A stretch of DNA of 64,000 nucleotides from positions 2,507-66,506 of the forward strand of contig JAZROX010000013.1 of assembly GCA_045648945.1 (NCBI GenBank), given 5' to 3'. Each line of letters opens with the position of its first letter. Position 1 is the first letter of the stretch. Shown here in pieces: positions 3,170-9,100 of this stretch. The position numbers were made by a program. The stretch comes from Candidatus Enterousia sp. (GTDB lineage: Bacteria; Pseudomonadota; Alphaproteobacteria; Rs-D84).

Positions 3170-6100
3170 TCACTATAAACATACAATTTCGAAAAATCAA
3201 GACCGCACCCAATAAAAACATTTGACTTTGTTTATATTCTGGTATTATTAAAACATTATGCGAGACACAATAAAAAAACATAGCGATTTTCATATGACCG
3301 ACACCGACCCGTCGGCGCGTTCGGAATTTTTTGTCGTTCGGGCGCACCCAACCCGGTTTCCGGGTGATGCGCGTGTCGGATTTATGGCGACCAAGCGCAC
3401 ATTTAAATTGGCGGTGGAACGTAATCGCGCAAAACGTTTAATGCGCGAATGGGCGCGTTTTCACCAAGATTTAATGGTTCCTGAATTTGACTATGTGTTT
3501 ATTGCACGCCAACCTATTTTAATGGCAACGCGGGACCGTGGCCGTGACGCTATGCGTCGTGAGTTGGCGCATATACTTAAAAAATACGCGCCAAAAACCC
3601 CGGCAAATCTATTAAAGATTATCAAAAATGCCGCGTAAATTCGGGATTTTTATGATAAATTTATACCAACGGTTTATATCACCGGCCTTTGGGGGGCGCG
3701 CTGCATGCCGTTTCACGCCGACGTGCAGCGAATACACAAAAACGGCGATTGAACGCTATGGCCTTGTCCGTGGAACATTTTTGGGAATTCGCAGAATTCT
3801 GCGCTGTCGACCCGGCGGGGGGTGCGGTTTTGACCCTGTGCCTTGACAAGTTATACAATTATGCTAGAATTTAGTTAACATAAAAGTAATTTTACAAAAG
3901 GATATGATTATGTCATTTCGTGCAACCGTAGAGTCCATGTCGAAAATAATGGATGATATGGGGATTACAGAACTGGATTTGGAACGCCAATTTTTGTTTG
4001 GCGTGTATCGTAAACATATACATTTATCAAAGCAAACGGGCACAACGGTAACGATGCCGGCCCTGCCTACATCCGATAGTGCCAAACATACAACCAGTGC
4101 CCCGGCCGACGCGGCCACATCTGGGTACGCATTGAAATCGCCGATGGTTGGTGTTGCATATCTTTCGCCGGAACCGGGCGCAAAACCATTTACCAAGGTT
4201 GGCGCGTCTATCAAGGCCGGCGACACCGTAATTTTGGTCGAGGCCATGAAGACATTTAACCCGATAAAATCTGACCGTGATGGCGTTGTGAAAGAAATCT
4301 TGGTTGCCGATGGCGCGGCCGTTGAATTTGACCAACCACTGATAATTATTGAATAAAGAAAACTATGCCAAAGATTAAGAAAGTTTTAATTGCCAATCGT
4401 GGCGAAATCGCGTTACGAATAATTCGTGCGTGTCGCGATATGGGCATTCGCACGGTTGCGGTTTATTCAACCGTTGACCGCGATGCGATGCATGTTCAAT
4501 TGGCCGATGAATCCGTATGTATCGGGCCGGGCCCGTCCAAGGATTCTTACCTTAACGAATCTGCGATTTTGACGGCGGCATTGTTAACAAATGCGGATGC
4601 AATTCACCCGGGCTATGGGTTTTTATCTGAACGTGCGGATTTCGTGCAAAAGGTTGAACAACACGGTTTAATCTGGATTGGGCCGGACGCCGCAATGATA
4701 AACAAAATGGGCGATAAAGTAAACGCCAAGAAAACCGCGATTGAATGTGGGTTGCCGGTTGTGCCGGGTTCCGATGGTGCGGTTGAAACATTGGAAGACG
4801 CATTAAAATGGGGTGAAAAAATCGGCTACCCCGTTATGTTAAAGGCCGCCGCGGGTGGCGGTGGTCGCGGCATGCGGCCTGTGCTTTCCGCCGACCAAAT
4901 GGCCGAAGCGTTCGAGATTACCAAGAACGAGGCACGCAGCGGTTTTGGCGATGATACACTGTACATGGAAAAATTATTGTTGCACCCGCGTCATATTGAA
5001 TTCCAGGTCTTGGGTGACAAACACGGCGACGTTGTAATCTTTGGCGAACGCGATTGTTCGTTGCAAAGAAAAAATCAAAAGGTTATGGAGGAATGCCCGG
5101 CCGCGGCCCTGACCCAGAAACAACGCGACGATATGATTGAAATCTGCAAAACGGCCGCCAAGAAAATGGGATACACGAACGCCGGCACGTTTGAGTTTAT
5201 GTATGAAGACGGCAAATTCTATTTCTTGGAAATGAATACCCGGCTGCAAGTCGAACACCCGGTAACCGAAATGGTTTACGGTGTTGACCTGGTGCGCGAG
5301 CAAATTCGTATCGCCGCCGGCGAAAAATTGGGCTATACCCAGGCGAACGTTATTCCGCACGGTCATGCGATTGAATTCCGTATCAATGCCGAAGACCCAA
5401 CGGATTTTGTGCCATGTCCCGGCAAGATCGGATTATATGCGCCGTCGGGGGGACTTGGTGTGCGCGTGGACAGCGCAGTTTACACCGGATACACAATCCC
5501 GCCAACATACGATTCAATGATTGCAAAATTGATTGTTCATGCCCAGTCTCGTTCGGCGTGTATCATGCGTGCGGAACGCGCATTGGACGAATTTGTTATC
5601 GAAGGCGTGAAAACCACAATTCCGTTGCAAAAGAAATTATTAAACAATCGCGACGTTCGCACATTGAACTTTGATAATCATTGGTTGGAAGGCTATCTGG
5701 CCAAAGAACATAAAAAGAAATAATTTTTTAGATTATTAAAAAACCGGATGCCCATGTATCCGTTTTTTTGCGCTTGACCAAATTTTAAAATTTTTGCTAG
5801 TATTCAATTGAACCCAGGTGGGAACCTGTGTTCGGGGCTTTAGCGAGCCTATACACATTCGGTGCGATGCATCGTAATCCTTTGGATTTCCATGTTTTTG
5901 CGCCGCGATAAATTCCCCGATTTAGGTCGGGGTGCTGGTGGTTATAATGATTTATCAAAAGACCATCAGAATCATTTAATGTGTATGATGCGCTAACACC
6001 CCGACCGTCAGGATTCCTGGCGGTTTTTAAAATCCCAAAAGTCCCCTTCACATTGTGAAGGGGTGGCACACGAAGTGTGACGGGGTAGACCAAGGAGGAA

Positions 6101-9100
6101 AACATGAGGAAATTTTTAATATCAATAATCTGTGCGTTGTGCGAGTGTTCTGCATTTGCCGCCGGTGAAAATGTCGCGACATCCAAGGCATTTGTTGACG
6201 CCGGCGTTGCACAGAAACAAGATAAAATTTCCGCAAATTCCGGTGCATCTCAGGTTTTAACCAACACCGGTGAATCGGGCATCGTTGGGACAAAAGATAT
6301 TTACACATCATCCGCCGCATATTCGGCCCAGTCCGATTCTTTGATTGACGCACAAACCATGAACACCGCCGTCCAAAACGCCATAAATGCAGAATTTAAA
6401 TGTGTTCAAACAAACCCAAATGATTCAACCGATTGTTGGTTGGTCGATGTCTTGGGGCAAACCGAAACACAAAGCAAAAACGTATTCGACATAAGCCGTG
6501 TCCCAACTACCGGTCCAATTATAAACAATGGTGATGGCTCTGTAACCGTAACTGGTGAACCCACTAATAGCGCAATGTATACAGGTAGAAAATTATCACA
6601 ATTGGCCCCGAACCTAGAGGTAGGGAAAACATATACTCTGAGTTTTGATTCATCGTATGGAGGCGCCGCATTAACATTGATTTATAATATAAGCACTGGA
6701 GATTATCATAATTGGAAGAGTAACACATCAGTAACAATGACCCAACATTTATTGGATTCAGGGGCGTATTTTCAGGCACCAACAAGAGGGGTGCCAATTA
6801 CAATGCGTGACATTCAAATAGAGGAAGGTACGGTTGCAACGCCATATCATCCATACGGAAATGTATATTTACCATCCGGCGACTAAAAACGGTGGCACCT
6901 GCCACCGTTTCACTAACCACTAACACTATAACTGTGCTTTGATTTCTTGGACCTCGTAACATTCTACGCGGTCGCCTTCTTTCAGGTCGTTATATTTATC
7001 AAAACTCATCCCGAATTCTACGCCACCAGAAACCTCTTTAACTTCGTTCTTTTCGCGGCGCAATTCGCCGATTTTGCCGTCGTATATAACAACGTTATCA
7101 CGCAACAATCGCACAAACGCGTCTTTCTTTATTGTGCCTTCACTCATGCGGCAACCGGCAACGCGAATGCCCTTGCCCACCGTGAACAGCGCGATAACGT
7201 CGGCATAACCGATAAAGTTTTCTTTCTTTTCAGGTGCCAATTTTCCGGACAAGATTTCTTTGATTTCGTCGGTAATACGGTATACGACACTGTGATAGCG
7301 AATATCAACACCACCCGCACGTGCCATATCACGAACCGCAGAATCCGCACGGACATTAAACGCGATAATTACCGCACCAGACGCGATTGCCAAACGCACG
7401 TCGCCTTCGGTAATTTGACCAACGCCCGCGGACAAGATTTCCACACCAACTTTGTCGGTTTTGATTCCACGCAACATATCGGTTATGGCCTCTACACTGC
7501 CCTGGACATCGGCGCGCAGAACAATCGGCAAAGTCAATTTTTTATCGTCCGTTTTTTGACGCGCAAACAATTCTTCCAATGAAGAACGCTTAACCGCGTT
7601 CGCCTTGTCGCGTGCGCGTTGTGTGCGATACGCGGCAACCTCGCGACACTGGGCCTCGGTTTCCATAACGTTCAATTGGTCACCCGCGGCCGGCACAGAA
7701 TCCAGCCCCAGCACCATAACGGGTTGTGCCGGTTTAACCATTTTGACACGTTCACCATTTGACATTATCAAACCACGGACGCGTCCAAACGTTTCACCAA
7801 CGACGAACACATCGCCAATCTTTAATGTGCCCTGGCGAATAATGACCGTTGCAACCGCACCCAGGCCGCGTTCCATTTTCGCCTCGACCACCGTGGCAAC
7901 CGCCGGCATATCCGGATCCGCCCTAAGATCCATCATTGCCGCCTGGAGCAATATTGCATCTTCCAATTTATCAAGACCGATTTTCTGTTTGGCGGAAATT
8001 TCAACACATTGAACATCGCCGCCCATATCTTCGACCTGGACTTCCTGTTGCAACAAATCTGTTTTAACCTTTTGCGGGTTGGCTTCGGGTAAATCGATTT
8101 TATTTATCGCAACAATAAATGGAACATTGGCCGCGCGAATGTGATTAATTGCCTCGATAGTTTGTGGCATGATTGAATCATTCGCCGCAACAACCAAGAC
8201 CACAATGTCCGCCATTTGTGCACCACGTGCACGCATCGCCGTAAACGTTTCGTGTCCCGGTGTATCCAAAAACGTGATTATCGCGCCGGATTTTGTTTTA
8301 ACCTCGTACGAAGAAATGTGTTGGGTGATGCCGCCGGCCTCGCCTGCGACAACATTTGCGTTGCGAAACGCGTCAAGAAGCGAGGTTTTACCATGGTCAA
8401 CGTGACCCACAACCGTCACAATCGGCGCACGCGGTTTTAAATTTTCCGGATTCGGTGCGCGTTCGATTTGGTCTGCATAGGGTTTAACCTCGACCCGCTT
8501 TACGGTTGCGCCAAATTCGCCGGCGATAATTTCCGCGGTATCGGCGTCAATGGATTGGTTTTGGGAAACCATCATTCCCATTTCCATCAATTTCTTGATA
8601 ACATTACCAACCTTTTCCGCCATCGCGGCTGCCAAGTCTTTGACGACGATTGTATCGCCCAATGTCACTTCGTGTGCGACCTTTTGCGGGGCGTTGAACA
8701 TTGCACGCGCCTTTTCACGGAAACGTTTCAATGAAGCCTCGGACCGGCGGCGATTTGCACCGCGAATTCCGATTGAATCTTCATCATCATCGTCACCCAT
8801 CACAATATCATGCAGCGATATTTTTCCGGTTTTAGTAAATTCTTTCTTGCCGCCACCGAATTTAGAATTTCGACGCGATTGCGTTGGCGCATCTTCGCCG
8901 TCATCGATATCATTATGACGCGATTGCGTCTTTTTAAAAGATTGATTTTGGCGCACAGGCGGAGTATCCGGGACCACCTCCGGTTCTTCATCGGCCAATG
9001 CGGCGGCATTTTCACGCGCGGCCAATTGTTCTTTGACCTGTTCATACTCTTTGGTTTCGCGGGCAATTTCGGCCTCGCGCGCGGCACGGGCGGCAGCCTC

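Follow-up and report, generated by a model that had tools for sequence, protein, structure and literature searches.

Within a 64,000-nucleotide (nt) stretch of the Candidatus Enterousia sp. contig JAZROX010000013.1 (below, the window), a gene for a secreted protein is preceded by a region, 5774-6103, where several short segments can pair with each other in alternative ways. A sequence-only reading of this region, here called leader C, had suggested that the alternative pairings of its segments (1:2, 2:3 and 3:terminator) are the selected feature. Hence the question is whether C encodes an RNA with two maintained structures, and, if so, what these structures control.

The region 5774-6103 is the promoter and 5' leader of the secreted-protein gene, and its part 5810-6029 is a diverged member of a family whose copies are self-contained transcription units, each made up of promoter, structured RNA (~170-220 nt) and intrinsic terminator; four other copies (A, B, D and E) lie in the window. 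Comparison of the family sequences shows two mutually exclusive predicted folds, both maintained by compensatory evolution. Segment 2 is paired with segment 1 in one of them, the terminator fold (T-fold), and with segment 3 in the other, the X-fold; calculated energies show the T-fold to be the thermodynamic default. In its logic, the element is a terminator/antiterminator leader with an extra long-range lock, and its nearest known relative is a poorly understood family of small RNAs (sRNAs).

Architecture of the C leader

The following parts of C, all on the plus strand, were identified (MFE, minimum free energy; CM, covariance model; ORF, open reading frame; aa, amino acids).

5774..5803: promoter, sigma-70-like; TTGACC, an 18-nt spacer and TAGTAT with TG upstream (9 of 12 matches with TG in the consensus scan)
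5810..5833: P0, the 5'-terminal hairpin GAACCCAGG UGGGAA CCUGUGUUC (MFE fold)
5834..5859: 5' strands of the long-range helices P1 (GGGG, 5834-5837), P1b (UUAGCG, 5840-5845) and P2 (UAUACACAUU, 5850-5859) (folding)
5835-5850: P1alt, an alternative local hairpin (folding)
5860..5905: Px, an inserted hairpin domain (alignment of C with L003+ and the L154 sequence; folds)
5915..5921: segment 1, CCCCGAU, partner of segment 2 in the T-fold and proposed anti-antiterminator strand
5925..5934: segment 2, GGUCGGGGUG, the switching strand, with segment 1 (T-fold) or segment 3 (X-fold) as the partner
5935..5969: P4, comprising a stem, an internal loop UAUAAU / AAAAG and a mini-hairpin GAUuuAUC; homologous to the family P4 with its 15-nt loop GAAUAUAUUGAAUAA
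5971..5989: Pb, a hairpin AUCAU ... AUGAU of the X-fold only (CM alignment)
5991..6006: P1b 3' strand CGCUAA (5991-5996) and segment 3, CACCCCGACC (5997-6006) (folding; inverted-repeat search)
6003..6029: intrinsic terminator, stem GACCGUCAGG / CCUGGCGGUU followed by a U-run (MFE fold)
6092-6098: Shine-Dalgarno (SD) sequence AAGGAGG
6104-6886: downstream ORF, a 260-aa secreted protein, paralogue of 40186..39368 and 51555..52604

The transcript likely starts near 5810. The -35 region of the promoter is common to E, at 51264, and P0 is found across the family, with the loop UGGGAA or AUGGGAG also in L003+ and L154 (related loci are designated by L and a number). Helix P2 is supported by a 9-nt perfect complement, 5851/5978. 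Most of its 3' strand (5978-5987) lies in the loop of Pb, and the last three bases are in the Pb 3' stem. In the T-fold the 5' part of segment 3 (5999-6002) is paired to the GGGG of P1, whereas in the X-fold the whole segment is paired to segment 2; the basal terminator pairs use 6003-6006, which are part of segment 3. The terminator was not called by a simple terminator scan, as just four T follow the stem.

The positions given by the sequence-only reading for this leader proved exact, and the sequences identical. These are segment 1 (CCCCGA at 5915-5920, matching TCGGGG inside segment 2); segment 2 (GGTCGGGGTG, 5925-5934); segment 3, its perfect 10-nt reverse complement and the longest perfect inverted repeat of the region; the terminator ACCGTCAGG/CCTGGCGGT with its T-run (6004-6028), having bases 6004-6006 in common with segment 3; the middle hairpin CTGGTGGT/GACCATCAG (5935-5969); the 3' hairpin CCCCTTCAC/GTGAAGGGG (6043-6063); and GGGGTAGAC (6082-6090), followed by the SD. 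All four segments of the proposed four-segment architecture are present, but there are further parts, namely the 5' hairpin P0, the long-range helices P1/P1b/P2, the inserted Px and the hairpin Pb. It had also been missed that the most stable fold zips the 5' domain onto the stretch preceding segment 3.

Two other statements hold in part. The sequence shared by C with both D and E had been limited to the promoter and the last ~60 nt. In the C/D/E alignment high identity is indeed confined to the vicinity of the promoter and the final ~68 nt, but TTGACCAAATTT is common to E alone, a string resembling it near D (40520) being on the opposite strand. The middle part, in turn, had been described as a wholesale compensatory replacement. 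This does not apply to segments 1-3, which differ from CTCCAACC/GGTTGGAGG/CCTCCAACC of D and E at two coordinately changed positions. It does apply to the stems of P1b, P2, Pb and P4, which in C have no sequence in common with D and E while complementarity is kept. As far as this comparison goes, the true wholesale compensatory replacement is in these four stems, where it had gone unnoticed.

The folding z-score of the C leader is -5.66. A perfect 10-nt inverted repeat arises in 6.9% of dinucleotide shuffles of the region; thus, the repeat alone is weak proof, and the case rests on the ensemble.

Copies in the window and in other genomes

A covariance model, R1, was built from 98 family cores with C and D left out, and run unfiltered on the window. 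It finds exactly five copies in 64 kb, the next candidates being reverse-strand echoes or noise.

Copy A, 1857..2045, minus strand: 103.8 bits, also by sequence and fold; upstream of a 73-aa XRE-type helix-turn-helix (HTH) ORF, 1846..1625 (Pfam)
Copy B, 25790..25975, minus strand: 100.5 bits; upstream of a 74-aa HTH ORF, 25781..25557 (Pfam)
Copy C, hit 5906-6040, plus strand: 38.1 bits, E = 5e-8 (E-values are rough, being from a short calibration); full model, every modelled pair canonical
Copy D, 40251..40470, minus strand: 68.4 bits; upstream of a 272-aa paralogue of the secreted protein; a hairpin is inserted in P4
Copy E, 51264..51484, plus strand: 98.0 bits, also by sequence and fold; upstream of a 349-aa paralogue

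The reciprocal model R2, made from C and its L003 relative, finds main-type copies at 22-35 bits. By these sequence models, C is a true but diverged homologue of A, B, D and E. That the same element precedes the unrelated HTH genes of A and B had not been noticed before.

A protein-guided scan set the window close to metagenome-assembled genomes (MAGs) of rumen and gut Alphaproteobacteria, including Candidatus Enterousia; one of the loci, L003, has two leaders in divergent orientation, one of the C type and one of the main type. To collect the family, a DNA pattern combining segment 2 GGNNGGNG and the P4 loop was used, which matched five viral-contig loci and at least 120 metagenome loci (gut, rumen, termite). 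R1 adds many copies without the exact pattern, and the family, comprising well over 150 copies of a ~200-base leader RNA, is large and uncatalogued. A scan of viral contigs with the C-type Px motif gave 24 hits; R2 confirmed none of them, hence all were taken as chance.

The individual folds give a common order of parts:

Parts 1-7: -10 box, P0, P1 5' strand (GRGG), P1b 5' strand, P2 5' strand, optional Px, A-rich linker
Parts 8-13: segment 1, a short loop and segment 2; P4; Pb 5' strand, P2 3' strand and Pb 3' strand; P1b 3' strand; segment 3 (its first bases being the P1 3' strand); terminator

The family P4 is a stem of 4-5 bp with the loop GAAUAUAUUGAAUAA (P4 loop GAAUAUAUUGAAUAAG), or has a hairpin inserted into it that splits it. 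At the promoter position, 87 of 108 family copies have a -10 hexamer matching in five or more of six places, with 45 expected. Almost every copy is followed by an ORF of the same orientation, its SD placed directly after the terminator, and in most copies the start codon is a few tens of bases past the terminator. This short distance leaves no space for a second promoter, and hence the ORF would depend on read-through.

One subfamily, upstream of Bro-N/ANT antirepressor-like genes, is built differently (L004:2886-3060, minus strand; L008:5457-5716; L036; L079; L115): no U-run terminator follows segment 3, and a different hairpin stands before the SD instead. This suggests that the expression platform of the L004/L008-type subfamily is translational and not transcriptional.

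Both folds are supported by covariation

Pairing in the X-fold was counted on the MAFFT core alignment A4 (98 sequences). For segment 2:segment 3, 99.8% of cells are paired, and double changes occur at four of nine pairs (UA>CG 9, UA>AU 8, AU>GC 7, GC>UA/AU 15). The P4 stem (94.7% paired) and Pb (76.7%) each have double changes at four of five pairs, one Pb pair being divided into UA 43 and AU 31. The covariation score of the X-fold is 0.332 against 0.139 in shuffles, none of 500 shuffles attains it, and it is at most 0.114 if the partners are slid by 1-3 columns. The family terminator is paired in 96%, with double changes at four of six pairs, and shares columns 109-111, the last three bases of segment 3, with the alternative helix (6004-6006 in C). 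Thus, as in attenuators generally, the terminator stem overlaps an alternative helix and both of them covary.

MAFFT with RNAalifold on full-length sequences recovered segment 2:segment 3 alone. Since MAFFT is unable to align the long-range helices, these were tested in an alignment-free manner. The mean energy of pairing between the 5' domain and the stretch from P4 to segment 3 is -25.6 kcal/mol for cognate pairs and -16.0 kcal/mol for non-cognate ones (Wilcoxon p = 8e-19), the cognate partner being better in 98% of copies. Among the MFE folds of 95 complete copies, segment 2 is paired with segment 1 in 88 and with segment 3 in three, and 88 of the 95 folds contain at least ten long-range pairs (median 20). 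Segment 1 also tracks segment 2: C[CT]TG[CT] is present upstream in 7 of 8 copies with GGCAGG and in 5 of 94 copies with GGTTGG, a clear result in the motif contingency test. The local fold P1alt is seen in 38 of 61 copies, with 17 expected. The proposal that the alternative pairings are the selected feature is hence supported by family-wide covariation, namely that of segment 2:segment 3 and the terminator, together with the tracking of segment 2 by segment 1.

In the five window copies the T-fold is favoured by 4.2-16.6 kcal/mol (12.2 for C), and forcing segment 2:segment 3 costs 0.5-9.2 kcal/mol before the 3' strand of the terminator is transcribed. Being lower in energy, the terminator fold would be the default.

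Transcription attenuation as the probable function of the element

We consider it somewhat better than an even guess that the element is a default-off transcription attenuator acting in cis and switched by a trans factor. In the T-fold, segment 2 would be sequestered by segment 1, and the 5' domain would zip via P2, P1b and P1 onto the stretch preceding the terminator, P1 masking the 5' part of segment 3. The terminator would then form, and polymerase would stop near 6025-6029, yielding a short RNA of ~215 nt in C and of ~190-215 nt across the copies. In the sRNA-Xcc1-like X-fold, segment 2 would pair with all of segment 3 (10 bp), enclosing P4 and Pb, and the 5' strand of P1 would fold back locally as P1alt; three to four basal terminator pairs beside the U-run would be lost, giving read-through into the ORF. 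The basal pairs next to the U-run matter most in intrinsic terminators. Both termination and read-through presumably occur. As the X-fold is less stable by 4-17 kcal/mol, a trans-acting factor would have to favour it. The candidates are a protein or RNA that might recognise the conserved internal loop of P4 and/or the unusually conserved segments, or might bind segment 1 and the A-rich linker.

The leaders have no leader peptide: an SD-led ATG ORF of at least eight codons is present in just 2 of 95 of them, neither the pair D/E nor the pair A/B has a conserved ORF in common, and ribosome-mediated attenuation was rejected on this ground.

Several points weigh against attenuation in cis. The X-fold, dearer by 4-17 kcal/mol, would rarely form unaided. 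An energy-based test of segment 1 covariation was not significant (p = 0.15), the counts come from a MAFFT alignment with flaws at Pb and segment 1, and the collecting pattern fixes five bases of segment 2 and the P4 loop, inflating their apparent conservation. Among catalogued RNAs the nearest relative is sRNA-Xcc1, for which an sRNA of ~88 nt is described (PMC2996969). Finally, some loci hold tandem arrays in which every complete unit has a -10 box and a terminator of its own, an arrangement that suits stand-alone sRNA genes better than simple leaders:

L016, 120-1020: four units before an 84-aa ORF, with no ORF between units
L081, 1-610: three units
L097, 335-952, minus strand: three units
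L078, 3280-3776, minus strand: three units

The tandem units are ~200-260 nt apart. In L016, segment 2 of copy 2 (GGCUGGAGG) complements segment 3 of its neighbours (CCUCCAGCC) better than its own (CCUCCAACC).

Relation to sRNA-Xcc1

At the gathering threshold, Rfam finds only tRNAs in the whole window. Run at E <= 10 on leaders C and E, it gives neither an RF02221 hit nor anything else of relevance; hence the window and these two leaders show no support for the known families, be they leader, riboswitch, T-box, ANTAR, c4 or isrK. A resemblance of the core to sRNA-Xcc1, overlooked by the sequence-only reading, is seen in relatives, where RF02221 alone gives a consistent match, always spanning the whole model (1-87) and always under the 53-bit gathering score:

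RF02221 scores, bits: L113, 43.5; L004, 36.9; L036, 36.0; L115, 32.8; L008, 31.3; L079, 29.7

sRNA-Xcc1 is an 88-nt RNA confirmed by Northern blotting (PMC2996969). In integron cassettes of Xanthomonas it precedes symE (bioRxiv 10.1101/2025.06.18.660453), and in the APSE phage it precedes an ORF6N protein (PMC7313666); a genomic island of Xylella is reported to have five copies in tandem (PMC12189769). It is described as a trans-acting sRNA whose mechanism is not known. The X-fold shares its plan, a G+C-rich outer helix of 9-10 bp (segment 2:segment 3) around a hairpin with the AAUA...UAA loop (P4) and a second hairpin (Pb), and the C-type segments GGUCGGGG/CCCCGACC are near the model consensus GgCcGGggG/CccCCgGcC. 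Both elements lie upstream of small accessory genes in the same orientation, and both occur in tandem copies. The window elements differ in having an extra 5' domain of ~100 nt complementary to segment 2, the Pb loop and the linker before segment 3, which provides the second, more stable fold; in ending with an intrinsic terminator overlapping segment 3; and in the position of the promoter, ~115 nt upstream of segment 2, with which the primary transcript would exceed ~88 nt. BLAST of an L004-type element against phage and Escherichia coli collections gave no match.

Together with the tandem arrays, this relationship raises, as an unlikely alternative, a stand-alone sRNA gene of the sRNA-Xcc1 kind, with the terminator as its 3' end and the expression of the ORF as incidental leakage. 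The T-fold transcript would then be a precursor, and removal of the 5' domain would let the X-fold form as the mature trans-acting sRNA; the cut could lie just 5' of segment 2, as with RNase P for P1 c4 and P4 CI RNA. The arrays of complete units and the five tandem homologues in Xylella agree with this, as do the match of the relatives' X-fold to the full RF02221 model at 30-43.5 bits and the Northern-confirmed 88-nt RNA, the model starting at the first base of the outer helix while the RNA 5' end is not placed on the structure. The bases after segment 3 (R, C/U, C/U) faintly resemble a tRNA 3' tail, but this RCC tail is weakly present and doubles as the terminator 5' strand, hence it is not independent. 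Processing alone would leave unexplained the conserved overlap of segment 3 with the base of the terminator, and in most copies the SD of a same-orientation ORF directly follows the terminator, with no space for a promoter. Nor was a conserved single-stranded seed with identifiable targets found: outside the elements themselves, the window shows no excess of the complement of the P4 loop.

Segment variants and the P4 loop

Besides C, three leaders from other organisms carry segments of the C type:

C (window): segment 2 GGUCGGGGUG, segment 3 CACCCCGACC
L154:966-1178, with its gene between rpsI and tig: segment 2 GGUCGGGGUG, segment 3 CACCCCGACC
L003:2735-2970: segment 2 GUUGGGGUG, segment 3 CGCCCCGAC
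L113:5368-5612, minus strand: segment 2 GGGUCGGGGG, segment 3 CUCCCCGACC

All four retain segments 2 and 3, while their P2, Pb and P4 stems all differ, which also speaks for the pairings as the selected feature; L154 scores 43.7 bits with R1. The C segments GGUCGGGG/CCCCGACC, as judged from these sequences, are a recurrent variant and not a one-off. The motif CAUCGUAAUC...UGUUUUUGC of Px is kept in three of the four (C, L003+ and L154), the Px of L113 being different.

The P4 loop connects, at the sequence level, the C type and the main type. It is UAUAAU / mini-hairpin / AAAAG in C, AAUAAU / hairpin / AAAAUAA in D, an uninterrupted UUAUAUAUCGAAGA in L154 and GAAUAUAUUGAAUAA in the main type, and bridging variants are present in D, L016 copy 4, L044 and L154. 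Given its alternative segments and variant P4 loop, C may answer to a different or modified input. In L042:2209-2319 (minus strand) the loop is replaced by a minimal GGAC-GUAA-GUCC hairpin; hence, in some copy it is dispensable.

At positions not fixed by the pattern, the frequency of the commonest base is 0.81-0.91 in segment 2 and 0.47-0.76 in the P4 stem, which suggests that segment 2 is constrained beyond cis pairing, with the reservation that the pattern biases the sampling and that shared descent may play a part. Such a constraint could reflect action in trans. In P4/phiR73 and P1/P7, specificity shifts by coordinated changes in all partners. The CI RNA of P4 immunity pairs with seqA and seqC, causing premature termination (PMC4825925). 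The elements studied here share with P4 CI and P1/P7 c4 the location of the RNA in a leader, a central sequence that is complementary to one upstream and one downstream sequence and changes coordinately with them, a role of pairing in premature termination (known in P4, proposed here), and the proximity of Cro/CI-type and antirepressor genes.

By analogy, terminated RNAs or their cores might pair via segment 2 with segments 1 and 3 of nascent leaders having the same segments, and so set termination; the segment would be an address, and variants such as the C type separate regulatory channels. We hold this to be improbable. Segments 1, 2 and 3 are laid out as seqA, seqB and seqC of P4 (PMC4825925); the segments, more conserved than other helices, yet switch coordinately between classes; one segment sequence is present in many copies per genome and another in C, L003+, L113 and L154; Cro/CI-type HTH and Bro-N/ANT antirepressor genes lie downstream; and in L016 the segment 2 of copy 2 suits its neighbours better than itself. 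But the covariation is explained by cis pairing alone, recent common ancestry may partly explain the conservation of segments, and segment 2 is cis-paired in both predicted folds, hence not obviously free. The three segments lie within ~90 nt and are able to pair in cis, and the copies, numerous and chromosomal, have housekeeping genes as neighbours and do not belong to the immunity region of a prophage. Neither in sequence nor by CM does the element resemble Rfam c4 (RF01695) or isrK (RF01394), the sole isrK hit being weak and outside it (L154:869-931, 24.1 bits against the gathering 50, E = 0.31). Also, the ribosome-binding-site region, ~40 nt after the terminator, does not behave as a c4 a2/b2-like target, since its complementarity to the core is not copy-specific (cognate -8.6, non-cognate -9.0 kcal/mol).

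A broader version, a chromosomal addressable RNA-RNA network, is also quite doubtful. Dozens of units in gut Alphaproteobacteria would release short RNAs acting in trans on nascent leaders with the same segments by the logic of phage immunity (P4 CI-like), and these would determine the read-through into accessory genes, with C-type GGUCGGGG/CCCCGACC as a separate channel and sRNA-Xcc1 of Xanthomonas, Xylella and phages as reduced members.

Downstream genes and comparison with other leaders

A set of 76 non-redundant downstream ORFs was scanned against Pfam. At least 13 encode Cro/CI/XRE-type HTH proteins, three Bro-N and one ANT; a C5 DNA methylase, glycosyltransferases and an ABC transporter are among the single cases. 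Most of the ORFs have no Pfam match and are small helical proteins or proteins with signal peptides. Overall, the downstream classes are Cro/CI-type HTH proteins, Bro-N/ANT antirepressors, restriction-modification genes and secreted proteins.

This heterogeneity bears on a riboswitch, where a junction of the T- or X-fold would bind a small molecule or ion and shift the balance between terminator and antiterminator. The large structured 5' leader, the terminator platform and the strong covariation would fit, and there are conserved unpaired bases, namely the P4 loop halves, the A-rich linker before segment 1 and C74 after P4. However, instead of genes of one pathway and a conserved ligand pocket, we observe HTH regulators, antirepressors, methylases and secreted proteins without a common metabolic or transport theme, and helices and junctions most of which vary freely among copies. 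The P4 loop can be replaced (the GUAA tetraloop of L042:2209), and arrays of three to four units are unusual for riboswitches. A riboswitch thus appears hardly probable.

The transcription-attenuation reading may be compared with other leaders as well. As in classical attenuators (trp-type, protein-dependent or riboswitch platform), an upstream strand, a switching strand and a terminator-overlapping strand compete; in contrast to them, no leader peptide, known protein-binding repeats or aptamer was found (Rfam being negative), and a second anti-antiterminator, the long-range P1/P1b/P2 zip, also locks segment 3. The zipper attenuator of the pLS20 family (PMC13401043) is likewise a factor-independent-looking leader on accessory or mobile genes, where complementary flanks of a central stem-loop decide whether the terminator forms. 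However, there the long-range extension makes the antiterminator, whereas here the long-range zip goes with the terminator fold; moreover, there is no sequence relationship, and a Gram-positive plasmid is compared with alphaproteobacterial chromosomes. IsrK of Gifsy-1 (PMC4825925) shares a short terminated RNA and a read-through mRNA from one locus, alternative leader structures, and an accessory or prophage context, but acts in trans on translation of the read-through mRNA.

Should the two-state model hold, the family, with more than 150 copies and several per 64 kb, would be among the larger uncatalogued cis-regulatory RNA families, and would control a coherent class of accessory genes (Cro/CI-type regulators, antirepressors, restriction-modification, surface and secreted proteins) in uncultured Alphaproteobacteria of the gut and rumen. 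It is rare for a candidate RNA motif to have two alternative folds backed by covariation. The model would also offer a mechanistic reading of sRNA-Xcc1, annotated in many pathogen genomes, integron cassettes and phages, which may be the antiterminator or the mature form of a bistable leader. The natural segment variants and the diverged C are ready-made compensatory mutants.

The 3' module and the secreted-protein paralogues

Leaders C, D (40187-40470 in full, minus strand) and E (51264-51554 in full) share, in addition, a 3' module, which in the consensus fold is a small three-way junction just before the SD:

C, 6036..6090, plus strand
D, 40196-40262, minus strand
E, 51476-51545, plus strand

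In C it consists of an outer UCCC/GGGG helix, the hairpin CCCCUUCAC/GUGAAGGGG (6043-6063) and the hairpin CACAC/GUGUG (6067-6079), followed by GGGGUAGAC (6082-6090). The second hairpin is CCGGC/GCCGG in D and E, and in total 4 of 20 predicted pairs of the C/D/E consensus fold are preserved by two-sided changes (three in hairpin 2, one in hairpin 1). L153 (960-1055) has the module alone, with no attenuator, before a homologous gene.

The three paralogues (6104-6886; 39368-40186, minus strand; 51555-52604) have a conserved N-terminal domain of ~125 aa and unrelated C-terminal parts, with no Pfam match for any of them, the 260-aa protein included. Exact-protein look-ups for the window protein, P0002 and P0014 gave no record. 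Homologues were found solely in Alphaproteobacteria MAGs, and in L153 and L154 the homologous genes lie between rpsI and tig.

Genomic context

The units of the window are single-gene cassettes between housekeeping genes:

1447-3142: mreB, A, tRNA
4365-9334: accC, C, infB
22696-26537: infC, B, mutS

Each promoter-leader-ORF unit looks like an inserted cassette, similar to a phage 'moron'.

A TAGTG-rich motif, TAGTGGTTAGTG, together with its one-mismatch variants, occurs 16 times in the window (0.08 expected), often two or three times in tandem:

1572-1583, plus strand
2062-2093, minus strand
6911-6922, minus strand
25504-25535, plus strand
26004-26015, minus strand
27916-27947, plus strand
28013-28031, minus strand
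52629-52660, minus strand

Where the sequence was read, the motif directly follows the stop codons of mreB, infC and infB, just before their intrinsic terminators. In A and B, the housekeeping terminator beside the motif supplies the -35 box (TTGCAA) of the leader promoter. The motif is present in L022 too.

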